Shown here in pieces: positions 2,894 to 64,000 of a stretch of 64,000 nucleotides of DNA. The DNA lies in the NCBI GenBank assembly GCA_963769025.1, contig CAVYKI010000009.1:1184001-1248000 (forward strand). The letters run 5' to 3'. Numbering within the stretch: position 1 is the stretch's first letter; each line of letters begins with the position of its first letter. The notes under the pieces are model-generated. The model was not told the DNA's origin and did not search any database. It saw nothing but the letters and a program-made list of their open reading frames with translations. The translations under genes were made by a program, and so were the position numbers. This stretch comes from an uncultured Verrucomicrobiae bacterium (lineage in GTDB: Bacteria > Verrucomicrobiota > Verrucomicrobiia > Chthoniobacterales > Chthoniobacteraceae).

Positions 2894-4315
2894 TTGAGAC
2901 GCTTCGCAAAATATCTCGCCATCACCTCCATCGCGGTGGCGCTCCTGCCCGCCGCAGGCGGATGGTTCATGAACCGCTGGGCGCAATCCCCTGCCGGTCG
3001 CGCGAGCATCGAGGCGCAACTCAGCAGCGCGCTGCGCCTGCCTCTCAAGATCGCGAGCCTCGACTTCTCCGCATGGCGCGGACTCACGGCCAAAGGGATC
3101 ACTGTGTCCGGCCCCGATGGCATTCTGTTTGAGGCCGCCGGCATCTCGGCCAGCCACCGCTTCTTCCCGCTGCTCCGCGGCAGCTTGGCGCTAGATGAAG
3201 TGCGCATCGAACAGCCGCAGTTCCGACTCGTCGAGGATGCGGCCGGCAAATGGAAGCTCTCGCAAGCGCCGATCGCCGCGCCTACGGCCATCACCGAGAT
3301 CCCGCCGCCCGTGATCTCCCAGCCCGCGGCAACCGCGACCCCTGCGCCGCGAAAATCATCCGGCATTTCCATTGGCAAAATCACCGTGCAAGGCGGCACC
3401 GCCGAACTCATCGACAAGGCCCGCCGCCCCTTCGCAAACATCACGGGGCTGAGCATCACCCTGCGCGATGTGACGGACCGCGGCTTCGCCGGTGACTTCG
3501 CAGTCGAGCGCGCGATACTCCACGGCTGGTTCGCGCTCGAGAACCTGAGCGGCACCGCGAATCGCGCCGGGCAGGACATTCAGATCCGGAAACTCACGGC
3601 CACCGCCGGCGGAGGCGCTGTCACCGGCGAAGCCACTTGGTCCGCCGTCTCCCAAACGGCGAGCGCCGCTCTGCATCTCGAAGGCATCGGTCTCGCGCGC
3701 ACCACGCAGGACGCCGGACTCACCGGCCAGAGGATTTCCGGGACGCTCAGCGGCGATGCGCAGTTCGCTGGGCTCGGTTCCGACAAAAAGGGCATCACCG
3801 GCAAAGGCACCCTTGCCCTCAAGAGCGGCAATTGCAGCCAGATCGAGGCGCTGCGGCAAATCGGCGACGTGCTGCGACTCGCCTCGCTCGCCAATTTTGA
3901 AATCGCAGATGCGACGGCCAATTTCCAAGTCGCCAACGAGCAGGTCGTCCTCGCGCCGCTCGATGTCTCGGCACCGCCCGTCGGCATCACGCTCACCGGC
4001 CCCGCGACGTTCGACGGCACGCTGAACCTCTCCGGACTGCTGCACGCACCCGCAGATCTCGTCGAGCGTCAGGGCATCGTCGCGGGAAAATTTTCACCGG
4101 CGGATGCGCAGAACCGGCGGAGCGTGCCGTTCAACATCACCGGCCTGCTCAAGAAGCCGAAACAGAACCTCGCCGAGAGCCTCACCGGCACGAAGGACCG
4201 CAAGCAGCAGCGCATCATCGCCGCCGAGTCGATCATCTCCGCGCTCATGCAGCGCAACAAGCCCAAGGCAGAACAACCCGCGCCGCCACCGCAGCCCGTC
4301 CCGGCGCAGCCATGA
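2894..4315 (+). CDS. AsmA-like lipid-transport superfamily protein
   Basis: N-terminal TM anchor, beta-rich repeats, C-terminal GPATFDGTLNL...VPFNITGLLKKP. Confidence 0.7.
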   Translation: MRRFAKYLAITSIAVALLPAAGGWFMNRWAQSPAGRASIEAQLSSALRLPLKIASLDFSAWRGLTAKGITVSGPDGILFEAAGISASHRFFPLLRGSLALDEVRIEQPQFRLVEDAAGKWKLSQAPIAAPTAITEIPPPVISQPAATATPAPRKSSGISIGKITVQGGTAELIDKARRPFANITGLSITLRDVTDRGFAGDFAVERAILHGWFALENLSGTANRAGQDIQIRKLTATAGGGAVTGEATWSAVSQTASAALHLEGIGLARTTQDAGLTGQRISGTLSGDAQFAGLGSDKKGITGKGTLALKSGNCSQIEALRQIGDVLRLASLANFEIADATANFQVANEQVVLAPLDVSAPPVGITLTGPATFDGTLNLSGLLHAPADLVERQGIVAGKFSPADAQNRRSVPFNITGLLKKPKQNLAESLTGTKDRKQQRIIAAESIISALMQRNKPKAEQPAPPPQPVPAQP

Positions 4316-35298: not shown

Positions 35299-35557
35299 TC
35301 CCGCACCCGCGGGCCGCGGCGCCCGCGGAGTGAACGCCAGCGCACCGTCTGCAAGCGGACTCCACCGGCCCTTTCGCAAAGCGCGCCAACGGATCTCCCG
35401 CGAACGGACACCAGCGGCGTTCCATCAACCAGCCCAGGGTCGCGAGGAACGAGCTCCCCTGGGTTCCGTCATCAAAACGAATCCCACCGGGCTTCCACTC
35501 GCATTCCGCCGAAAGACTTGCCCCGCGTTTCGCGTTCCGCCATTTCCGTGGGCTACG

Positions 35558-36034
35558 ATGAAAACCACCTTCTTTTTCCTGCTCGGCGCCTCGATCCTCC
35601 CCCATACCCTCCCGGCCGCTTCCAACGCCGCGATGGAAAAGGAGTATCAGCAGGTCCGCACCATCGCGCTCCGCGACCCGCGCGTGCAGTCCGCCTATCG
35701 CGATGCCGACCGCAGGCTGGATGAAAAGATGATCCGCATCGACCCCGCCTTGGAATCCTACGTGAAAGCCAAGCAAGCCGCCCGCGAAGGCACTGCCGCT
35801 CCGAAGCCCGCGGCACCTTTCACCCGCTCCATCTTCGGCAGGAGCACCGCGCCCAAGACCACCCACGCGGTCGCCGCGGGCGAAACGCTCGGCTCCATCG
35901 CCGCGAAGCACCGCATCACGGTCGCGTCGCTCAGAATGGCAAACCACATCAAGGACGAGCGCAAAATTCCCGTCGGCCAGGTGCTCACAATCCCCGCCCC
36001 CGCATCCGCCGGTCGCACGCGCTCGACGCGTTGA
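35558..36034 (+). CDS. Secreted LysM domain protein
   Basis: Signal peptide; C-terminal HAVAAGETLGSIAAKHRITVASLRMANHI...IPVGQVLTIP. Confidence 0.85.
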   Translation: MKTTFFFLLGASILPHTLPAASNAAMEKEYQQVRTIALRDPRVQSAYRDADRRLDEKMIRIDPALESYVKAKQAAREGTAAPKPAAPFTRSIFGRSTAPKTTHAVAAGETLGSIAAKHRITVASLRMANHIKDERKIPVGQVLTIPAPASAGRTRSTR

Positions 36035-36158
36035 GGCTGCGATTTCGCAGCCGCGCACATCCAGCCCCGCCTTGTCTGCGCCTCCATCCTGCGACGCAGC
36101 CTAATGCAGCATTGCAACTGAGGCGAAAGACCTGCCCGGGATGAGGGAGGCGGCGCTT

Positions 36159-36329
36159 CTACTGCGCCTGCTGCACCTCCGGGCCGGTGTCCTCGGAAAT
36201 CAGCCAGAGGATGTTGGGCTTCGCCGGCCTGTCCGCCGCCGCGGCCTCACGCAAAGGAGCGGAGATGCTGGGGACTGAGAGCAGCAGGGCCGCGGCGGAG
36301 CGGACGGTTCTGAGGGAGCTGTGGTTCAT
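36159..36329 (-). pseudogene. Truncated sulfatase N-terminus (56 aa)
   Basis: MNHSSLRTVRSAAALLL...ADRPAKPNILWLISEDTGP, then an early TAG; no continuation seen. Confidence 0.6.
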
Positions 36330-36450
36330 GAGGGATGAAGCATCGGAGGGTTATCTGCGCGAGGGGAGAAAGTGGCCGCGTTCGGCGATGTCGTGGAGCA
36401 ACAGTGCGGCACAAATCAGGCTTTCACCGCCTCAGCGCCGTCGTCGGCAC

Positions 36451-37941
36451 TCAGTCGAAACTCGGATCCGCCGCCAGCGCCATCTCGCGCCGGCGCTCGC
36501 TCTCGGGCTTGCCGGTGTTGCCGGCCCCGCGCTTGCGCTTCGCCTTTCCCTCGCCGCCGGTCAGCGAAAGATCGGAGTCATTCTTCTGTGCCTCGCCCGG
36601 CGTGCTGCGCCCGCGGGCGATGTAGGTTTGCATCAGCGCAGTCAGCTTCGTCGCGATTTCACCATTCGCCGCGAGCACGTCCTTCGTCTCGCTCAAGTCG
36701 TCGGCGAGATTGAAGAGTTCCCGCTTCCCCGTCTTGTGAAAGATCGCCTTCCACGGACCCTGGCGGATGGCGAGATCGCCGGCCGCGGACTGGTGCACGG
36801 TGGCTTCGCGCACGCCGTCCTTTGCGGTGCCGGAAAATTCCGGGAGCAGGCTCACGCTGTCTTCGCCGGCGTTGGCGGGCAGTTTCGCGCCGACGATTTC
36901 CGCGGCGGTCGCCATCAGATCATTGAGGCAGACGGTGTGAACGTTCACCGAGCCGGGCTTGATTTTCCCCGGCCATCGCGCAGCGAACGGCACGCGGTGC
37001 CCGCCCTCGTAAATGCTGCGCTTCGATTCGCGCAACGGCTCGTAGGCGCGGTGCTCGGCGCCGTTGTCGCTCGTCGCGATGACGAGCGTGTTGTCCGCAA
37101 GATGATTGCGCTCCAGCGCGTCGAGAAGCTGCCCGAGCATCGCATCGCCCTGTCTGAGCCAGTCGCCGTATTTCGGATCCTTCTTCACCAGATCCTGCGC
37201 GCCGCTTTTCCCCACATGGTCCGGTGCCGGCACGATCGGCTCATGGGGCGGACACATCGGGAAATAGAGGAAGAATGGTTCCCCCTGCTTCCGCTGCCCG
37301 ATCCACTCGACCGCTTTCCTGATCATCAGCGGCTGATTTTCCACCGCCCCGACATGCGCCACCACGCGATCCTGCTCGATGATCGTGCCGATGTTCCGCG
37401 CATGGGTGAAACCGTAAAAGTAATCGAAGCCGATGGCGTTCGGCCCGTCCGTCATCTTCGCGCCGATGGGCACTTCCTTATCGGTGCCCGGCTTGCCATC
37501 CACCCAGTTCATCCCGAGATGCCACTTGCCGATGCACGCGGTCGCGTAGCCGTTCTGCTTCAGCAGCGACGCCACCGTGAGCCGGCTCGCCGGGATGATC
37601 GGCGTTGAAAAAGTCGTGAGCACCCCGAACTGCCCGATTCGCGAAGGATACCTCCCCGTGAGCACGCCGTAACGCGTGGGTGTGCAGACTGCGGAACCCG
37701 TGTGCGCATCCGTAAAGCGCATTCCCTGCTGCGCAAGACGGTCGAGGTTCGGCGTGCGCAAAGCGGAACCGGCATTGTAACTTTGCGGCTGCCCCCAGCC
37801 CATGTCATCGAACAGGACGAAGATGATGTTCGGCTTTGCGGCCGTGCTCGCATCGGCGGCATGCACCGTTGGCAGCGCCGCCAGCGCAAAAGCTGCGCCA
37901 ATCACAAACGCGATGGGTGTCGGGGAGTTGCTTTGTCTCAT
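36451..37941 (-). CDS. Arylsulfatase (formylglycine-dependent)
   Basis: KPNIIFVLFDDMG, CTPTR, GKWHLG, SDNG and YEGGHRVP; signal peptide. Confidence 0.95.
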   Translation of the reverse strand: MRQSNSPTPIAFVIGAAFALAALPTVHAADASTAAKPNIIFVLFDDMGWGQPQSYNAGSALRTPNLDRLAQQGMRFTDAHTGSAVCTPTRYGVLTGRYPSRIGQFGVLTTFSTPIIPASRLTVASLLKQNGYATACIGKWHLGMNWVDGKPGTDKEVPIGAKMTDGPNAIGFDYFYGFTHARNIGTIIEQDRVVAHVGAVENQPLMIRKAVEWIGQRKQGEPFFLYFPMCPPHEPIVPAPDHVGKSGAQDLVKKDPKYGDWLRQGDAMLGQLLDALERNHLADNTLVIATSDNGAEHRAYEPLRESKRSIYEGGHRVPFAARWPGKIKPGSVNVHTVCLNDLMATAAEIVGAKLPANAGEDSVSLLPEFSGTAKDGVREATVHQSAAGDLAIRQGPWKAIFHKTGKRELFNLADDLSETKDVLAANGEIATKLTALMQTYIARGRSTPGEAQKNDSDLSLTGGEGKAKRKRGAGNTGKPESERRREMALAADPSFD

Positions 37942-38280
37942 GGTCAGGATTGGGGGTCTTGTTGGGGAATATGATCAGAGACACTTCAAACAACGGCAAT
38001 CGTCCCGATTCGGACTGCGGAATGTCGTCACTGCATTGCGAGCGCGGCCGGTTTTCGGGTGCCGCCAGTATCGGGGGCGTCCATGACGGCTTCACGACGA
38101 ACAATCCAGCTACTTCCGCTCCGTCGCCGCCGCGACGCTTGGTCGGATGGGCAAAGCCTTCGGACTGGAAACTGCCGACTCGTCGGGATCGATGCCCTTC
38201 CGGCCGCCTACAAATTGCGAATCCCTCAATTTCGCGATTGCGCGAATCCCGAACTCCCTTTAGTTACCGCCCCCCTTTCC

Positions 38281-38354
38281 TGCCTCATGGTGTAACGGTA
38301 GCACAGCAGACTCTGAATCTGCTTGTCTAGGTTCAAATCCTAGTGAGGCAACCA
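38281..38354 (+). tRNA. tRNA-Gln (anticodon CTG)
   Basis: TGCCTCA/TGAGGCA acceptor stem, anticodon arm GCAGA-CTCTGAA-TCTGC, GTTCAAATC T-loop, encoded CCA. Confidence 0.97.
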
Positions 38355-38482
38355 TCTCGCGGCCGCGCCAGGAAAGTGCATCCGCCGACGTGGCGACAGC
38401 GCGCAATCCCCTTCCCCGCCGGCCTGTTTCTTCGCCGCCTTGCGCCGCCTCGCCTGCTCCGGTCATCAGCATCCTTGCGGCT

Positions 38483-39160
38483 GGATTTCGGGCTCAAAAC
38501 CCATTGTTTCTGGTGGCCCACCCGGCCCGGCCGTCTCAATAAGCAATCATTCCTGAGAGACACGAGACTCCGGGTCGTGGCCAGACAATCGTTCCCGGCG
38601 GACACCTCGCTCCGGTGGGTGCGCAGACAATCGTTTTCAAGGATCACCTCGCTCCGGCGTGCTGAAACACAATCGTTTTCCGGGGACATCAGGCTCTGGT
38701 TCCGCGAAAGACAATCATTCCTGAGAGGCACCCCGCTCCGGTCTCTCAGGAACGATTCGTTTTGGCGTCCGACCCTCTCATTCCTGCCCAAACGCAATCG
38801 TTCCTGAGAGTCCCCAGCTTTCCGGGTGAGAAAACACAATCATTGCTGAGAGTCCCGAGCCTCCCGTCTGCCAATTCGGATTGTCGCGCAAGGCTCCGGA
38901 GCCTCCTGTCTGCCAATTCGGATTGTCGCGCGGGGTTCCGGAGCCTCCCGTCTGCCAATTTGGATTGTCGCGCGGGGCTCCGGAGCCTCCCGGCAACGAA
39001 TTTGGATTGTCGCGCGGGGCTCCGGAGCCTCCCGGCAACGAATTTGGATTGTCTGGCCGCGTTCCGGAGCGGGTTGTCCCTCCAAAACGATCATCTGCTG
39101 ATTGTCCCGAGCCTCCCGGCAGTCAGGACGGATTGGTTTTTCACGCGCCCGAACTTCGAA
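38483..39160. repeat. Degenerate 42-bp-period array (about 15 units) with internal orientation switch
   Basis: CAATC at 38544, 38586, 38628, 38670, 38712, 38795, 38837; its reverse complement GATTG at 38879, 38921, 38963, 39005, 39047, 39131; CTCCGG/CCGGAG in phase. Confidence 0.9.
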
Positions 39161-39316
39161 ACAAGGGCCGAGGCCATACCGCGGACCGGCGCCTTCCTCC
39201 GCCGCGAGCGGCACCGCGCCGGCTGCGGGTCGGCCCGGACCGGACCAGCCTCGGGGCAACGATTGCTCGGAAATAGGTTGCCGCAAAGCCGCGCACCACT
39301 TCCCTTTCCCGCCCAC

Positions 39317-42300
39317 GTGAAACCCGGCGCTCCGAATCTGCTCGATGCCATCGGCCGTGAGCCTTCGCTTGCGGCGAAGCTGCGCGCAGTGACGGAGGGC
39401 GGCGACGGGATTGTCTTCGAGCAGGTGACGGAGGGAGCGCATTCGGCATTGTGCGCGGCCATCGCGCGGGCCGCGCAGCCGACGGGAAGCCGGGTGTGGC
39501 TCGTGTGCCCGGCCCTGCGGGCGCAGGAGCAGCTGCACAACGAGCTGCTGCAATGGACGCCCGACGCGCTCTTTTTCCCGGAGCTGGAAGTGGCCCCCGT
39601 GGAGGGCGCGATTCCGGACCCCGAGACGGTGGCCGAGCGGCTCGCCATCATCCACCGGCTCAATGCGCGCGACGACGGGAAGAAGCCGCTCGTGATCGTG
39701 CTCACGAGGGCGGCGCTGGAAGAGGCGGTGCCGGACTCGGAGGAGATGCAGGCGCTGGAAATGCGGCTTTCGCGCGGCGAAACGGTGATGCGCGAAATGC
39801 TCCTCGGACGGCTGAGCGCGGCGGGCTACGAGCAGGCGGCGCAGGTCTCGCAGCGCGGGCAGTTCGCGGTGCGCGGCGGCATTGTCGATGTTTTCAGCTT
39901 TCACCACACGCTGCCGACGCGGCTGGAGTTCTTCGGCGACGAACTGGAGAGCATCCGGCAGTTCGACCTCGATGCGCAGACAAGCGTGGAGCAGCTCCCG
40001 TCCTGCACGATCCTCCTCGGCCAGGCGGTGCCTCGCGCGCGACGGCTGCGCGACTGCATCCGGGAGCGGGACATCACCGTGGATGTCGGCGCGGACTGGC
40101 TGGAGGCGAAGGTGACGATCAGTGCTGGATCGGTCGGCGGAGAATTCACCACGGAGGACACGGAGAACACGGAGGGAGTCACAGGAGATTCTGACTACGA
40201 CTCTTTGCATACCTCCGTGCCCTCTGTGGTTGAATCACAAGCATTCGACTACTCGCTTGCCTTCTTTGACAACGGGCTCGGGGAATTTGAGGCGGGCGAT
40301 TTCGTCGTCGATGAGGCGCGGCGCGAGCGGTTCTTCGCGCAGCTCACGGAATGGCGCACGCAAGGGTGGAGCACCTTCGTCTTTTGCAACAACGAGGGCG
40401 AAATCGAGCGGCTGCGCGATCTGATCCCCGCGGTGGAGGCGGACGCGCTGCAATTTTCGGAGGGCACGCTCGGGCGCGGGTTCACCTTCCCGGCCGGACG
40501 CGTCGCGGTGCTCAGCGACTCGGAGCTCTTCGGCCGCTACCGCAACACCCGCGCGCGGCGGATCGCACTGAAGCGCTCGCGGGAGATCGTCAGCCGTTCG
40601 CAGATTGATTTCAGCGAACTGATTGAGGGCGAACTCGTCGTGCATCTCGAACACGGCATCGCGCGCTTCGAGGCGCTGAAGCAGCTCGCGAACGGCGAGG
40701 ACGTGCTCGCGCTGGAATTTGCCGAGGACGCCAGGCTCTACGTGCCGCTCGACCAGAGCTACCTCATCGCGCGCTACGTGGGCATCGGGAAAAAGCATCC
40801 GCCGCTCAGCAAGCTCGGCGATGCGGCGTGGACGAACGCGAAGAAGAAGGCGGAGAAGGCGGCGTTCGACTACGCGGGCAAACTGCTCGAAACGCACGCG
40901 GCGCGCGAGACGCAGAAGGGCTTCACCTTTCCGCCCGACAGCAAGTGGGTGCGCGAATTCGAGGCGTCGTTTCTTTACAAGGAAACGCCGGACCAGCTCA
41001 CCGCCATCGCCGACACGAAGGCCGACATGGAGACGGAACAGCCGATGGACCGGCTCATCTGCGGCGACGTGGGCTTTGGAAAAACGGAGGTGGCGATCCG
41101 CGCGGCGTTCAAGGCGGTGTGCGCGGGCAAGCAGGTCGCCATCCTCGTGCCGACGACCGTGCTCGCGGAGCAGCACTGGCGGAATTTTCGCGAGCGCATG
41201 AGCGACTACCCGGTGACGGTGGACATGCTCAGCCGCTTCCGCACGCGCGGGCAGCAGGTGAAGACGCTCGCGGGAGTGAAGGACGGCACCGTGGACATCG
41301 TCATCGGCACGCACCGGCTCATCTCGAAGGATGTGGAGTTCAAGGATCTCGGGCTCGTGGTGATCGACGAGGAGCAGCGCTTCGGCGTGCTGCACAAGGA
41401 GCGCTTCAAGCAGATGTGGCCGCTGGTGGATTTGCTCACGCTCTCGGCGACGCCGATCCCGCGCACGCTCTACCTCTCGCTCATGGGCGCGAAGGACATG
41501 AGCACCATCGAGACCGCGCCGCTGAACCGCATCCCGGTCGAGACGCTCATCTGCCCGTACGACGAGCGCATCATCCGCGACGCGATCCAGCGTGAGCTGA
41601 AGCGGCAGGGCCAGGTGTTCTTTCTCCACAACCGCGTCGGCGACATCCAGAGCGTGGAGGCAAAAATCCGCATGCTCGTCCCCGGCGCGCGCACACTCGT
41701 CGGCCACGGGCAGATGGCGGAGCATGAGCTGGAGGAAGTGATGCACCAGTTTGTGAAAGGCGACGCGGATGTGCTCATCTCCACGACGATCATCGAGAGC
41801 GGCGTGGATATCCCGAACGCGAACACGATCATCATCGACCGCGCCGACCGTTTCGGGCTCGCCGATCTCTACCAGCTCCGCGGACGCGTCGGGCGTGCGC
41901 AGCACAAGGCGTACGCCTACCTGATGCTGCCGCGCGACATGCTCGGCACGGGCGAGGCGAGGAAGCGCATCAATGCGATCAAGCAATACGGCTCGCTGGG
42001 CGCAGGTTTCAAAATCGCGATGCGGGATCTGGAAATTCGCGGCGCGGGCAACATCCTCGGCACCGCGCAGAGCGGGCACATTGTGACCATCGGCTTCGAG
42101 CTTTACTGCGCGATGCTGCGCCAGGCGATCGCGAAGCTGAAAGGCGAACGCAGGAAATCGCGAATCGAGGTCGCGCTGCATCTGGACTTTGTCGTGCTGC
42201 GCGAGCCCGGCTTCCTCGAAAAGGAGCGCAAGGCCGGCTGGGCGCCCGCATTTCTGCCGACCGGCTACATCGAGGAGACGCACGCGCGCATCGCCGCGTA

Positions 42301-42589
42301 CCGCCACCTCAACGAACTCAGCACGCAGGAGGCGCTCGACAAGCTCCGCAAGGACTGGCGCGACCGCTTCGGCCGTTTCCCGGAGGCGGTGGAAAACCTC
42401 CTCACGCTCGCCGAGCTGCGCATTTCCTCCGCGGCGCGGAAGATCACGGTGGTCGAGGTGAAGGACGACAAGCTGATGCTCACGCGCGGCGGCGACTTCA
42501 TCCTCATCGGCGGGAAATTCCCGCGCCTCACGGCCAAGGGCGGAACCCCGCGGCTGCGCGAGACGTTGAAAATGATCCGCAGCCTGTGA
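39317..42589 (+). CDS. mfd: Transcription-repair coupling factor
   Basis: [19 protein letters not shown] (RNAP-interacting domain), [45 protein letters not shown] and TRCF domain; GTG start inferred. Confidence 0.96.
40144..40235. repeat. Palindromic 9-mer-based element inserted in frame in mfd
   Basis: ACCACGGAGGACACGGAG (40148-40165) vs CTCCGTGCCCTCTGTGGT (40213-40230), 16/18 complementary; encodes [11 protein letters not shown]...SVPSVV. Confidence 0.75.
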
Positions 42590-58497: not shown

Positions 58498-61400
58498 TTA
58501 CCCTTTGAGAACCTTCTCCCGCCACCGCCGCACGCTGCTCAGGTCCAGCCGTTCGCCTTTGAACTCGATCTGCTTCACCGGCTTCGTCCCGTTCGCGCTT
58601 TCGCGTTGGAGCACGCTCGATGATTTCCATCCAGCGCACGTCGGCGAATTCCAGCTTCGTCACTGCCGATCGCGCGCTCGTCGTCCTCCGAGAAGGTGCC
58701 GATCACCAGCATCACCGGATGCGGCTGCTGGATCCACGTCTTCACCCAGCGCTGCTTCTTGATCGTGAAAACCTCCGCGCCGTCGGTCTTGCGCTTCGTG
58801 AGGTGGGAATTGCCGGACTTGAGTTGCAGGTAGAGGCCGGCGTGCCGATGCCGTTCGCCGTCGTCATTGGTGAACTCGAGCTCAGCATATCCAGCCCGTC
58901 GTCCTCCGTCCGCCGGAATCTCGAAGCACTTCTGATCGGCGCTGGTGATGCGCGCGCCGACCTCCAGCGCCAGCAGCTTCCCGCGTCGGCGGGTACTCCA
59001 GCTTCGCGAGATCATCGGCCTGCAGTTGCTCGACCTGCGCGCGCACCGCGTCGCTGGCAAACTTCTTCTCCAGCGCATCCCACAGCGGGAAGCGCTCGCC
59101 GCAGTCGTCGCATTCCGTGTCGGCGTTCTGCTTTTCGCGCAGCAGCTTCTTCATCAGCACCTCGGGATTGCCTTTCGGCGCGTGACACTTCGGGCAGACG
59201 TAGTGCCGGAGCCGTTGCGCCTGTTCGCAGGAGGTCTGGAGGTGCGCGTGGATGTAGTTGGCAAAGATCACCTGCTCCTGCTGCGTCACGCCCTTGCCGA
59301 AATAGACGCTGATGTCCCCGTCGCTGCCGCTCTCGCGCGTGAGCTTGAGGCCCATGTGATGATCGCCCGCGAGCGTCACGAAGTCCGCGGCGTCGCGCCA
59401 GAGTTCCTTGAGTTGTGAAGGACTCGCTGTCCGCCAGCTTCACCACCAGCGTCGCGTAGATGTCGTCGAGAAAGCCCTTCACCGCGTAGCTCACGAAGAC
59501 CGACGGATGCTCCAGCACCGCCGGGCGGTCGCGTCCGCAATGGCTCGGGAAGACGAGCTTGTCGCCCTGGCGCAGGCAGAGGCCGCGCTGCTCCAGTTGC
59601 CGCTCCATCTCGCCCAGCACCACGCGCTCCTCGGCGGGCGGCAGGCGCTTCATCTCCACGGGAGCGCCGTCGCGCCCGATGCTCTGGTAGATCAGCTTCC
59701 CTTCCGCGATGCTGCGCAGCGGCAGCACGCCGAGATCGTTCTCCGCGCTGCGCAGGGTGCGAATCACGGCTTGCGCGTAGGCATTGATCCACTCCGGCGC
59801 GAGCAGGATGTAGGTGCCGTAGTCGAGTTCCTTCACCACGCCGGGACCGTCCAGCAGGCCGATCACCGTCTGCAAGGTCTCGTCCGTGAAGCGCGGTTCG
59901 TCCGGCAGGCGCCGCCAGAGCAGTTCGCGCAGTTCCTTGAAGGTGTGCAGCACCTGCCCTTCGTCCCGCAGCTTCAGGATCTCGTCCTTGATCAGTTTGA
60001 AAATGCGCGGCGACGTGCGCTTCTCCATCTGCGCCCAGGATGCCGGCGATCATGGCCGCGCGCAGTTCGTCGCAGCCGGTGCCGTCCTTCGCGCTCGTCT
60101 CATGGTAGGCGAGCCCCTGTTCCTTCGCAAAGGCTTGCAGCTTTCCCCGGCTCGCCTTGAAGCCGGTATCGATCCGCCCGGCCACGAGGAAGTGCGAAAT
60201 CTTCTCCTTCACGCTGCGCCGCAGAGCCGTCTGCCAGTCGCGCAGACCGGGCAGGACATCCTCTTGGTCCGCATTGAACAGTAGCAGGATGAGTGCGGTG
60301 CGATCCATGTAGAGCTGGTGAATGAGGCGTTGATCCGCCTGCCCGCCGAAATCCCATAGCCAGATGTCCCGTTCTACACCTTGCTCCACACTGGCGGCCT
60401 TGAGTTGCCACTGCGTGGACCACGCGCCAACCGTGGAGTCTTCACTCGGCTTCCATTCGCCGGTGGCGAGACGGTGCGTCAACCCGGTCTTGCCCGAGTG
60501 AGTATCGCCGACCAGGAGGACTTTGGCGTTGGTATATTCAATTTGGTCGCGCCAGAGAGGTAGGTCGTACGCGCGAGATGCGGACGCTCGTGCTTCAGCA
60601 GTTAATTCTTCCAAATCCCACACCCTAATTCCTCCGCGCTTGTCGCCGGAGAACGCGTAGCGTTGTTCTGCGCTCCACGCCACGATGCGGATTTCGTGTT
60701 TGTGACCTCTGAGCACTAGCAAACAGCGGCCAGTCTCGATATCCCAAAGGCGCACGGTGTTATCTGACGAACCAGACAATGCACGGCTCGCATCGCTGTT
60801 CAAAGCCAAGCTCGTAACTCGATTCGCATGGCCTTCGAGCACACGTAAACATCGCGCCGAGTCCGCCTCCCAAACACGAATAGTTCTATCGTGTGAACCG
60901 GACAATATGAGACGTTGATCGGCACTCCACGCTATACTCCGAACCTGACCAGTATGGCCTCCAAACACGCGAAGACACTCTCCGGTCTCAATGTCCCATT
61001 GGCGCACACTGTGGTCGTCAGAGCATGACAAGCCGCGGCGCTGGTCAGCACTCCACATTACACGCCAAACTAGAGAATAGTGTCCTTCAAACACGCGAAG
61101 ACATTGGCCTGTCTCAATATCCCATAGCCGCATCGTGCCATCGTCCGAGCCCGAAAGTGCGCGAGCGTTGTCCGCGCTCCACTCGGCGTGCCGAACCGCG
61201 TTTGTGTGACCCTGAAAGACTCGATTACGTCTCCGTGAATTAAAATCCCACATTCGCATGGTCTTGTCCGAAGAGCATGTGAGAATACGCCGCTGGTCAT
61301 TGCTCAGGGCGACACTGTTCACACGACTAGCATGGCCTCTGAAAGTAAGGAGGCACAATCCCGTCTTCGCATCCCAAAGCCGCGCTATGTTCTCAGTCCC

Positions 61401-61925
61401 ACCTGTTAGCGCGTGGTTACCGCTTGGGCTGAACACAAACGCTAAAAGCCTCCCCTTCGATCGAAGCTGGACGGCATTTGCCTCAACCTCCTCCTCCTCT
61501 TCCGTCGGCATCGTAGGAGGCGGCCGGCACGCTTCGAGGAGCTTCACATATTCCTGCTCGCGCTCTGCCGGGCGCCAGTTGATGTAAAGGAATTGCGCCA
61601 GGGAGCCTTTGATGGGGGCGTCGTCGAGGCGCAGGGGAAGGAAGCGGCGCTCCTTGTTCAGCGGGTCGCGAAAGCGGAACGTGCCGGACTCCAACTGCGC
61701 CCAGTCCGAGCCGAACGCATTCGCCGACATGCAGAGCACGAGCACGCGGGAGCGCTCCAGCCCTTCCTCGATCTTCGCCGGAATGCTGTCGCCGGGCCGG
61801 ATCTCCCATTCATCGAACCACACCCGCAGCCCGTCCTTCCTCAGCCGCTCCGCCACGTCGCGCACGACCGGCTTGTCCTTCGCGCTGTGGCTCAGGAAGA
61901 CGTCGTAGGGGAAATCCTCAGGCAT
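58498..61925 (-). CDS. TIR-WD40-Roc/COR-Zn ribbon-DUF4365-like nuclease multidomain protein (several frameshifts in the 3' half)
   Basis: TIR YDVFLSH...SDWAQLE; 7 WD40 blades; Roc GDTHSGKT, WDFGGQ, ETSAK; COR LAPEWINAY, LVFPS; CPKC/CDDC; DDGLD..LEF...LYLQLKSGNS; stop TAA at 58498-58500. Confidence 0.85.
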
Positions 61926-62184
61926 AAGGCGGTGGCATTTGGGACGGCGAGGACTGCGCGGCGTTTACATTTGCCGCTGCGTCCGCTGCGCCGCCGGGTG
62001 CTGTCTCGTGTGTCATGCCGCGTGGGAGGATGGAGATTCGCCGCGGAGGATGCACGATCGCGGGAAGCGAGGCGAGGAGGAAAAGCAGGACTTGGATTCG
62101 AGTGGAACGAAAAGCCTGCCGCAGGCAGCCCGAAGGGCAGCGCCGGAGGGCGCTGGCAAGCTTGGAGACGCGGGACTGGAGAGT

Positions 62185-62469
62185 TCACCAGCGGCGCGCC
62201 CCTTGCCGGGCGAAGGGCGGGCGGCGGCAGATGACTACGGTGACGGCTTCCAGCGCGGCGGCGAGGCGGTTCTCGACGCAGAGCTTGTCGAGGATGCGGC
62301 GGACGTGGGTGGAGACGGTGAAGTTGCGGAGGTCCATGATGCCGGCGATTTCGGGGTCGGTCTTGGCGTGGAGGATCCATCGCAGCACTTCGCCCTCGCT
62401 CGGGGTGAGCAGGGGGAATGAATCGCGGAGGGTGACGGGCGTGAGTTCGTAGGGAGCGGGAATTTTCAT
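62185..62469 (-). CDS. Stand-alone LuxR-type helix-turn-helix regulator
   Basis: LTPSEGEVLRWILHAKTDPEIAGIMDLRNFTVSTHVRRILDKLCVENR. Confidence 0.85.
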   Translation of the reverse strand: MKIPAPYELTPVTLRDSFPLLTPSEGEVLRWILHAKTDPEIAGIMDLRNFTVSTHVRRILDKLCVENRLAAALEAVTVVICRRPPFARQGARRW

Positions 62470-62838: not shown

Positions 62839-63258
62839 CAACAGTTGCCGGAGCATGGGGGAGACTCCTCCGGCCTTGGACAACACTTGCCGGAGCATGG
62901 GGGAGACTCCCCCGGCCTTGGACAACACTTGCCGGAGCTTGGGGGAGACTCCCCCGGCCTTGGACAACACTTGCCGGAGCATGGGGGAGACTCCCCCGGC
63001 CTTGGGCAACACTTGCCGGAGCATGGGGGCGACTCCTCCGGCCTTGGACAACACTTGCCGGAGCATGGGGGAAACTCTCCCGGCCTTGGACAACACTTGC
63101 CGGAGCATGGGGGAGACTCCCCCGGCCTTGGACAACACTTGCCGGAGCATGGGGGAGACTCCCCCGGCCTTGGGCAACACTTGGTGGCGCCTGGGGGAGA
63201 CTCCTTCACCTCCGGACAACAGTTGGCACAGCTTTGGGGAGGCTCCTTTGCCTCGGAA
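62839..63258. repeat. 42-bp tandem repeat: 8 near-identical plus 2 degenerate units
   Basis: Unit CAACACTTGCCGGAGCATGGGGGAGACTCCCCCGGCCTTGGA at 62839, 62881, 62923, 62965, 63007, 63049, 63091, 63133; degenerate at 63175 and 63217. Confidence 0.97.
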
Positions 63259-63305: not shown

Positions 63306-64000
63306 ATGGCGGCGTGGGATGAAGGGGCCTGGGATGATGGATTCTGGGACACGCCGACGCCGCCCGCCTTTCCGCTGATTCCGCAGGCCAAAAAACCAAC
63401 CAACCGAAAAACCATGGCTACAAACCCAACCCCCGATGACGATGACGTGCTCATCTCCCTGACCGAAGAACTCGCCGACGGCTGCCACCTGCACGAGGTG
63501 GCCCTCGGCATCAAGCAACAGACCGAGGCGGTCATGCGCGCCGGCCTGCTGGCGTCCAAGACCGCCCTCCTGGGCCTCGGCGCCGCGCGCGTGCTGGTGG
63601 ACCAGAAGAACGACCTCTTCCAGGCGGCGGACGCCGCGGGCGAGACCGTGCTGAAGAACTGCCGCCTGCGGCTGGTGAAACTCTTCGGCACGCAATACAA
63701 CTCCAACTGGCAGGCCGCGGGCTGGCCCGACCAGTCCACGAAAATCCCGCTCAGCCAGGACAAGCGCCTGACGCTGCTCGGCGCGCTGGATCTCTACTTC
63801 ACCGCCAATCCCTCCGCGGAGAGCGAGGACATGGACGCGACCGCCGCCATCTGCCACACCGCGCACGAGGCCATCAGCGATGCGCGGGGCGCGGTGAATG
63901 TGGCGGATTCCGGAGTGACGACGGCGAAGAACACGCTGACGAGCACGATGAAGACCCTGCGCAAGCGGGTGCGCGGCCTCATCGTGGAACTGGGCACGCT
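63306..64000 (+). CDS. Hypothetical helical protein, partial; resembles the N-terminal part of PVC proteins that end in a fibronectin type III domain
   Basis: Open frame from ATG 63306 (or 63414, MATNPTPDD...) to the window end with strong GC3 bias; YNSNWQAAGW motif. The Fn3 call is recalled resemblance; that domain is not inside the window. Confidence 0.7.
   Translation, partial: MAAWDEGAWDDGFWDTPTPPAFPLIPQAKKPTNRKTMATNPTPDDDDVLISLTEELADGCHLHEVALGIKQQTEAVMRAGLLASKTALLGLGAARVLVDQKNDLFQAADAAGETVLKNCRLRLVKLFGTQYNSNWQAAGWPDQSTKIPLSQDKRLTLLGALDLYFTANPSAESEDMDATAAICHTAHEAISDARGAVNVADSGVTTAKNTLTSTMKTLRKRVRGLIVELGT

Follow-up and report, generated by a model that had tools for sequence, protein, structure and literature searches.

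The array considered here lies behind a tRNA-Gln gene in a 64,000-nucleotide stretch of DNA (the window) from an uncultured Verrucomicrobiae bacterium of the Chthoniobacteraceae (assembly GCA_963769025.1, contig CAVYKI010000009.1, positions 1,184,001 to 1,248,000). Coordinates are positions in this 64-kb window unless a contig is named; G000 denotes the whole assembly that holds the window and G000:C9 its contig. Fifteen in-phase units of 42 bp at 38533-39157 read as an orphan, slightly shortened copy of a conserved non-coding module, and this fold-back module in turn appears to belong, in diverged form, to a class of 41/42-bp tandem arrays in the 5' control region of a family of genes encoding fibronectin type III (FN3) domains. 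The array class, found in soil Verrucomicrobia, is previously undescribed; a literature search on 42-bp tandem repeats, including those of Verrucomicrobia, returned, among the papers listed, none whose title or opening of the abstract points to a comparable array in bacteria. We favor, tentatively and at somewhat less than an even chance, the reading that these arrays are helically phased lattices of protein-binding sites that would control the downstream gene. The decisive context comprises the link to the gene family and a second array in the window, both of which lie beyond the first-pass annotation of this DNA.

Organization of the Array

The first-pass annotation described about 15 units of 42 bp. 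The Tandem Repeats Finder (TRF) search recovered the 42-bp period in two stretches, and a layout of the sequence in 42-nt rows revealed the remaining units. In the row layout, box A changes from CAATC to GATTG. CAATC starts at 38544, 38586, 38628, 38670, 38712, 38795, and 38837, and GATTG starts at 38879, 38921, 38963, 39005, 39047, and 39131. All box A cores fall on a single lattice except for a 1-nt slip between 38712 and 38795, and the array contains a single off-phase GATTG at 39100. Of the 26 matches to ACAATC in the window, 11 are within 38585-39105.

The boxes had been proposed to invert while keeping phase. This holds for box A, which flips on one lattice. However, box B of the right half is the palindrome CTCCGGAG, in which CTCCGG and CCGGAG are both present; its 'inversion' is therefore uninformative, and the true flip is confined to box A. 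A division into a forward left half and an inverted right half was likewise only partly correct: the switch to GATTG does occur from 38879, but the units run as five forward, one inverted, two forward, and seven inverted rather than as two blocks. The array as a whole is an imperfect fold-back, as had been suggested, with arms at 38546-38590 and 39047-39091 that are 71% complementary over 45 nt.

The left block (38533-38742, + strand) comprises five heterogeneous forward units of 42 bp; it starts with a GTCTCAATA terminus, carries box B as GCTCCGG, and includes a stretch (38568-38657) scored by TRF as 2.1 copies at 77%. Boxes of about 9 and 13 nt alternate in these units with variable parts of about 8 and 11 nt to give the unit of 42 nt, and the right units, as well as the canonical arrays described below, are without variable parts. 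The center (38703-38818, +) emerged from an inverted-repeat search as two nested or alternative hairpins, with arms at 38703-38727 and 38743-38767 (80% complementary) and at 38735-38765 and 38788-38818 (81% complementary). It contains the 1-nt slip and the single inverted unit, which is the return arm of the first of these hairpins. Two further forward units (38777-38860, +; CAATC at 38795 and 38837) are followed by a right block of about five near-identical inverted units (38853-39053, +; 4.8 copies at 92% by TRF; GATTG 38879-39047) with the palindromic box GCTCCGGAGC. Two degenerate inverted units (39054-39157, +) complete the array, with CGATC at about 39089 and GGATTGG at 39131.

Copies of the Module and Their Evolution

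A genome-wide search for similar phased arrays, suggested by the first-pass annotation, yielded further 21/42-bp arrays, considered below, and a second copy of the module at G000:C6:653855-654440. The latter came from a motif search across the full assembly. In alignment it matches the window copy unit for unit, and it brings the number of copies in G000 to two. A DNA search of 61 related genomes detected the module in three (G000, G004, and G014), all of one genus, and a metagenome scan with the central-hairpin pattern added a fifth copy at one locus, on metagenome contig L197. Each unit in the left block of the window array has its counterpart in alignments with the C6, G014, and metagenome copies. 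The same unit order is common to all five copies, and the central hairpins are kept in five of five. Their contexts differ: the tRNA-mfd junction, beside an IS5 transposase, beside an XRE gene, convergent with a sulfatase gene, and beside a TIR gene. A wider search for three ACAATC at 42-bp spacing returned at least 120 stretches, and none among those listed was related to the module (nhmmer, best E = 0.39).

Two of these contexts can be described further. An IS5-type DDE transposase gene (L001 4507-5496, -) directly precedes the C6 copy, in the position taken by the XRE gene at the G014 locus, and a TIR-domain gene (L197 1003-2001, -) adjoins the metagenome copy.

The C6 and G014 modules are both exactly 579 nt between two GTCTCA termini and differ at 160 of 571 positions with no indels; when L197 was added to the alignment, a single 1-nt indel was required over about 600 nt. 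The module consists of 14 units of 42 bp spanning 579 bp between GTCTCA termini. The termini (GTCTCAATA) are in direct rather than inverted orientation, and no target duplication was seen at the module ends. In our reading of the sequence, the termini resemble a degenerate GGGGAG-N-CTCCCC box, and in G014 a further unit starting GGAGTCTC is present 42 bp beyond the module terminus. The window copy departs from this plan in its 1-nt slip, in the replacement of several right-arm units by five near-identical ones, and in the loss of about the last 60 bp: homology to the other copies ceases past 39157, and the segment with the right GTCTCAA terminus is absent when compared with the right ends of the G014, C6, and L197 copies. 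The near-identical right units appear to be a secondary expansion peculiar to the window copy, as the other copies are heterogeneous there.

An orientation switch inside a repeat could reflect an assembly or fold-back read artifact, as the first-pass annotation cautioned, and no public contig bridges the array. Contigs from four DNA runs were only short, covering 38331-38523, 38957-39028, the tRNA, and mfd. An artifact is nevertheless effectively refuted. Four further copies, all assembled independently and separated from one another by 19-31% substitutions, have the forward-inverted-forward-inverted order, and this agreement between separately assembled genomes excludes a chimeric read or assembly.

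In both C6 and G014:C4, the module is located 270 nt upstream of, and on the same strand as, an unannotated gene, which allows the module to be compared with its surroundings by ungapped counts. The two loci are identical at 416 of 579 positions (72%) in the array and at 793 of 1026 positions (77%) in the gene, versus 89 of 270 positions (33%) in the spacer between the array and the ATG and 81 of 300 positions (27%) immediately upstream of the array. The array is thus almost as conserved as the coding sequence, while its flanks are unalignable. Together with the lack of indels, this points to selection acting on the spacing of the array. In C6 (L134) as in G014:C4 (L133), exactly 270 nt separate the right terminus of the module from the ATG, despite the unrelated sequences of the two spacers.

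Arrays Upstream of FN3-Domain Genes

The products of the gene linked to the module in the C6 and G014:C4 pair, P0001 and P0002, are 69% identical. No Pfam, NCBIfam, or PHROG family was detected in the linked protein. An AlphaFold2 (AF2) model (pLDDT 87.9) predicts long helical hairpins followed by a C-terminal FN3 domain, and matches of the model in the PDB and BFVD libraries were confined to FN3 domains. The family has four matches in G000, seven in G004, and eight in G014, and it is present in 16 of 61 genomes and in 8 of the 29 genera of the taxonomic family. Among 8000 candidates scored, 249 were relatives at E <= 1e-5; a few of these are named 'fibronectin type III domain-containing protein' and derive from metagenome-assembled genomes of Chthoniobacteraceae or Verrucomicrobiaceae. 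Matches in a protein atlas comprised Verrucomicrobiota hypotheticals only, and no relatives were found in viral contigs. The gene family is multi-copy and specific to Verrucomicrobiota. Its members are likely surface proteins, with collagen-like neighbors, and many matches to the family sit at contig ends.

TRF was applied to 33 fetched loci of this family, of which five with <500 bp upstream were set aside (n = 28). A 41/42-bp tandem array was detected about 20-650 bp upstream of the gene in 20 of the 28 loci. The period is 41 instead of 42 upstream of family members in three genomes of one genus (L150, L154, L155, and L163). Six canonical arrays comprise 8.7-10.2 copies at 88-95% identity and are located 37-307 bp from the start codon. 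Unit sequences are unrelated between loci, and most carry a short palindrome with a center of 1-3 nt, often GGGGAG-N-CTCCCC; this motif occurs 12 times in G000, each time inside one of two canonical arrays. Hairpin-like segments are conserved between the array and the ATG.

The best-preserved example of the class in the window is the second array (62839-63204, +), in which TRF identified 8.7 copies that are 94% alike, each with the palindrome GGGGGAG-A-CTCCCCC. All six of its frames are open, but the start codon lies downstream of it. That start codon belongs to a member of the FN3 family (M-A-A-W-D-E...; 63306-64000, +) that runs past the end of the window (G000:C9:1247303-1248331); its product is 50% identical to P0002, and its start is conserved. 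On the other side, a small gene for a 94-aa GerE/LuxR-type helix-turn-helix (HTH) protein (62185-62469, -; Pfam GerE, E = 1.4e-11) is divergent from the array. Beside this locus, the window also encodes an 849-aa protein (59376-61925, -) with TIR_2, WD40 repeat, and Ras/Roc GTPase domains.

Smaller repeats accompany some members of the family. Four to five heptad repeats with the core CAATCC, which is the core of box A, abut the start codon of the two closest paralogs (L133 2527-2558 and L136 about 1590-1626). After the stop codons of FN3-family genes (L133 1191-1485; L134 2559-2721; L137 2508-2666), 7-8-nt tandem repeats are followed by their reverse complements; these runs form long hairpins with sub-threshold microRNA-like Rfam scores, in a forward-then-inverted style like that of the 42-bp module.

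The distribution of these arrays bears on whether they are satellite DNA, selfish or neutral, or else a non-autonomous portable module, having arisen and spread through duplication and recombination. Under this alternative, the fold-back would be a functionless relic of one inverted duplication and the window copy would be debris of a rearrangement junction. Five copies in five contexts, a patchy distribution (3 of 61 related genomes), and a shortened window copy inside a 914-bp segment absent from five relatives are all consistent with it, as is the homogenization of units, which are 92-95% alike within an array versus about 70% between orthologous arrays. However, divergence of 28% without an indel, between loci in which both flanks are unalignable, argues for constraint, and the period is kept across genera in which the units are unrelated. 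The direct termini, the lack of visible target duplications, and the presence of only two copies in G000 also count against spread of this type. We consider the alternative unlikely, and the related suggestion of a mobile element in the first-pass annotation retains the variety of contexts but not the terminal inverted repeats or target duplications, which were not found.

Another possibility is a contingency locus, in which gain or loss of 42-bp units would change promoter geometry and thereby switch surface-type genes on and off. Near-identical and slippage-prone units, such as those of the canonical arrays (8.7-10.2 copies at 88-95%), upstream of a multi-copy family of likely surface proteins with collagen-like neighbors would suit such a switch, and the many gene matches at contig ends are expected for unstable or unassemblable repeats. 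Six canonical arrays from different genomes nonetheless vary little in copy number (about 9-10), and the heterogeneous fold-back is not easily slipped, yet is conserved. A contingency locus is therefore improbable in our estimation.

A Proposed Phased Lattice of Binding Sites

DNA completes a helical turn every 10.5 bp, such that 21 and 42 bp correspond to two and four turns, and HTH dimers bind palindromes with short centers. Site spacing in the arrays corresponds to an integer number of helical turns and has been kept in evolution at 42 bp (41 in one genus) across the 20 of 28 loci, with unrelated units. In the lattice reading, each unit would offer two short putative sites about 21 bp apart, namely box A (CAATC/GATTG) and box B (the palindrome CTCCGGAG or, in canonical arrays, GGGGAG-N-CTCCCC), such that the sites would recur at every second turn and all face the same side of the DNA. 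Roughly 400-600 bp might then be coated cooperatively by a dimeric DNA-binding protein, and this coating would switch the downstream promoter. The small HTH proteins of the XRE or GerE type whose genes adjoin many arrays are candidates for the coat. Since a flipped unit would keep its site center on the same face, orientation would be free to change while phase would not. A lattice of this type would explain an invariant phase combined with free unit sequence and orientation, and it would also explain the very short palindrome centers and the neighboring small HTH genes. Of the three options offered in the first-pass annotation, a phased lattice on one DNA face is the best fit and is partly supported.

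Of 13 loci scanned, 6 have a small HTH gene as the immediate neighbor of the array. These genes are of the XRE type in G014:C4, G014:C9, and G007:C29, with a further match below the Pfam cut-off in G104:C25, and of the GerE type in the window and in G091:C103. Adjacency is the sole link between the arrays and a binding protein, and it is from adjacency that we infer binding.

Several observations weigh against a lattice that controls the FN3 genes. No array was detected by TRF in 8 of the 28 family loci, and 7 of the 13 loci scanned are without a recognizable HTH neighbor, having instead a product of no family (two loci), a PAS protein, an integrase, an LRR protein, a TPR protein, or an IS5 transposase. 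In three of the five fold-back copies (window, G004, and L197), no FN3-family gene follows. Box A lacks palindromic symmetry, and a scan for sigma-70-like promoters was negative near both arrays of the window. Folding of the fold-back is much stronger than that of shuffled sequences (z = -10.4 for the C6 copy), for which an RNA or cruciform role would account as well. Lastly, other 21/42-bp arrays of G000 adjoin unrelated genes, and some are at 3' ends.

Those other arrays indicate how common such periods are in the genome. Among TRF rows for G000 with at least three copies and a period of at least 15 bp, a period of 21 is the most frequent (19 rows), followed by 42 (11 rows) and 18 (7 rows); after overlapping rows were merged, a period of 21 or 42 was present in 15 of 41 loci. 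Four long 21-bp arrays (G000:C9:210326-210705, C9:1126605-1127085, C10:337034-337400, and C13:22037-22428) comprise 17.5-22.9 copies that are 92-96% alike and span about 370-480 bp, near the length of the 42-bp arrays; one unit is common to three of the four. The chromosome of Oleiharenicola sp. Vm1 (L084 about 2920-3300) carries approximately 18 tandem 21-bp units starting AAACAAT or AAGCAAT. Oleiharenicola belongs to another verrucomicrobial order, which suggests that quantization at 21 bp is wider than one family. Two paralog pairs were also observed beside other 42-bp or 21/22-bp arrays of G000, one encoded at L176 2222-3016 (-) and L181 3376-4164 (+) with 34% identity and the other at L178 3417-4025 (-) and L180 3142-3876 (-) with 30% identity. 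The FN3 family may not be the sole family linked to such arrays.

A broader proposal, which we regard as possible but doubtful, is that soil Verrucomicrobia of the Chthoniobacterales type, and perhaps the phylum as a whole, possess a previously undescribed cis-regulatory architecture of roughly 400-bp lattices quantized at 21 or 42 bp. Arrays of about ten 42-bp units, or of 18-23 units of 21 bp, would nucleate a locus-specific HTH filament or DNA loop that switches multi-copy FN3/collagen-like surface genes; unit sequence and regulator would co-diversify while phase and total length stay fixed, and the fold-back would be a portable form of the lattice. Should the arrays be phased operator lattices, they would represent a natural case of conservation of helical phase and array length without conservation of sequence. 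They would then also provide a clean test bed for cooperative, face-of-helix gene control in a poorly studied phylum, and a first handle on an abundant FN3 gene family. The arrays also matter in practice, as they break short-read assemblies and could pass for CRISPR or TIGR arrays.

Coding Potential and RNA Structure

The array is non-coding. The fold-back has stops in all six frames, and substitutions between the C6 and G014 copies are distributed 45/57/58 over the three codon positions. A coding repeat of 14 codons was rejected on the basis of these stops, the lack of a period-3 substitution bias, and the 41-bp period in one genus. Units of orthologous canonical arrays differ mostly at non-synonymous positions in the frame of the gene, and a conserved start codon is located downstream of the array.

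Alternatively, the arrays could be transcribed as long 5' leaders, or as stand-alone RNAs, of tandem 42-nt hairpin modules, with the fold-back forming a hairpin of roughly 250 bp; such an RNA would serve to regulate stability or translation, or else to titrate a protein that binds RNA. Predicted folding is strong, with a minimum free energy of -282.9 kcal/mol for the window array (z = -4.7, 20 shuffles) and -299.8 kcal/mol for the C6 copy (z = -10.4). When the two copies were folded jointly with RNAalifold, 18 of 153 pairs had changed on both sides versus 0-3 in slid controls. The position of canonical arrays 37-307 bp upstream of start codons and the conserved hairpin-like segments between array and ATG also fit a leader.

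The RNAalifold result is circular, however, in that the structure was fitted to the same sequences. In a cross-test, where one copy was folded and the other was scored, pairs changed on both sides were kept in 6 cases and broken in 9, and in the reverse direction kept in 13 and broken in 8, versus 2-10 pairs kept in slid controls; among one-sided changes, 50-51 pairs were broken and 18-20 kept. Covariation in the cross-test, for which two to three full-length independent copies are available, was no better than in the slid controls. These losses suggest that pairing is decaying rather than maintained, and the fold-back looks like what remains of an ancient inverted duplication that involved a block of units.

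Among 15 arrays and 4 fold-backs, neither the sense nor the antisense strand was consistently favored in folding: the sense strand had the advantage in 10 of the 15 arrays, in line with G+T content, but not in the fold-backs. Many of the palindromes have 1-nt centers, which RNA hairpins cannot fully use, and an RNA offers no rationale for a period at multiples of the DNA helical repeat. In Rfam 15, the tRNA alone passes threshold (67.6 bits), and the other matches are microRNA-like hairpins far below it. We therefore consider transcribed hairpin modules unlikely, on a par with the satellite; of the hairpin RNA proposed in the first-pass annotation, the strong predicted folding stands, while covariation, strand bias, and Rfam lend it no support. 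No terminator-like sites were found at 38000-39500, and two overlapping ones at 62114-62128, past the 3' end of the GerE gene, are no more than occur in shuffles.

The tRNA-Gln-mfd Junction

The window array is flanked by genes for a sulfatase, a LysM protein, and mfd. The tRNA-Gln gene (anticodon CTG; 38281-38354, +), which was identified with ARAGORN and is the match that passes the Rfam threshold, is the sole tRNA gene in the window. It is separated from the array by a unique spacer (38355-38532) that is without counterpart in other copies or relatives, similarity to C6 being lost left of GTCTCA. On the other side, a unique junction segment (39158-39268) leads to mfd (39302-42589, +), which encodes the transcription-repair coupling factor (Pfam DEAD, UvrB_inter, Helicase_C, TRCF, and CarD_TRCF_RID) and is on the same strand as the array.

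In a BLASTN comparison of 35500-39700, homology to the mfd loci of five relatives begins at 39269, 33 bp before the mfd start, and homology of the tRNA-Gln gene to relatives ends at about 38354-38362, the tRNA 3' end. The tRNA-Gln match and mfd are on separate contigs in G004, G012, G014, and G015, and the best candidate for a tRNA-Gln match in G007, at 84% identity, is not a clear one. The 1-1.5 kb upstream of mfd is free of tRNA genes in all five relatives. These limits of homology indicate that 38355-39268, a segment of 914 bp that includes the array, is a junction peculiar to G000 and lacking in the five relatives.

Because the window copy sits in this junction, the tRNA is a neighbor rather than a part of the element, and the link between them is incidental. 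Co-transcription of the array with the tRNA, as had been suggested, finds no support: the four other copies are without an adjoining tRNA, and the tRNA-Gln flank differs in the five relatives. No member of the FN3 family follows the window copy, since mfd starts at 39302. The window copy is probably without a dedicated target gene, and it is probably inert debris of little consequence for tRNA-Gln or mfd.

Comparison With Known Systems

TIGR arrays consist of two alternating repeats of 8-12 nt with spacers of 9-12 nt in units of about 36 nt; their repeats are bracketed by box D (UG) and box C (CCA) motifs, and they are associated with a Tas gene that encodes a Nop domain (PMC12045711). The left units of the window array likewise alternate two short boxes with two short, less-conserved segments, and both kinds of array have 5-15 units, but the units here are 42 nt rather than 36 nt and those on the right are without variable parts. 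A search for the Nop domain (PF01798) in the whole G000 assembly, which is 83% complete, yielded no matches, while 4 of 14 control genomes matched; the doubt that the first-pass annotation had expressed about a TIGR system was well placed. Box A (ACAATCRTT) and box B (GCTCCGG) are without a TG start and a CCA end. In contrast to guide spacers, the 'variable' segments of the window array are conserved between copies in different genomes and mirrored between the arms, and the canonical relatives are without any variable part. A CRISPR array was rejected because whole units repeat without unique spacers and no cas domains were detected in the flanks scanned. A guide RNA array of either the TIGR or the CRISPR type is thus very improbable, and the same low probability applies to a centromere or iteron origin of the plasmid type, to which we return below.

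Miniature inverted-repeat transposable elements (MITEs) and fold-back elements resemble the module in being non-coding, at approximately 600 bp, with long imperfect inverted arms in several unrelated contexts. The module differs from them in its direct-repeat ends, the absence of a target-site duplication, its two copies per genome, and its strict 42-bp phase. A MITE or fold-back transposon was rejected given the direct GTCTCAATA termini, with no duplication seen, the two copies in G000, and the presence in 3 of 61 genomes.

Plasmid iterons and the operator clusters of XRE/Cro-CI phage repressors have sites about two turns (21-22 bp) apart, and HTH genes are beside 6 of the 13 loci here. The number of sites is nevertheless higher in the present arrays (10-23 versus 3-7), no rep or prophage genes accompany them, and viral contigs yielded no homolog of the linked gene. 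This last result and the lack of a Rep domain in the flanks scanned argue against an iteron origin as well as a plasmid-type centromere.

Together with iteron or operator clusters, the sopC centromere of plasmid F is the nearest analog of the arrays in function. It comprises twelve direct repeats of 43 bp, and every repeat contains an inverted-repeat SopB site. The 42-bp units with a CTCCGGAG or GGGGAG-N-CTCCCC palindrome correspond to units of the sopC/parS type. The two systems have in common tandem units of approximately four turns with a short palindrome, about ten such units, and a protein coat presumed to be cooperative. The flank proteins scanned include none with a ParA or ParB domain. 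The arrays described here differ from sopC in being chromosomal, in occupying multiple loci ahead of a specific gene family, and in having units that are locus-specific and in some cases inverted.

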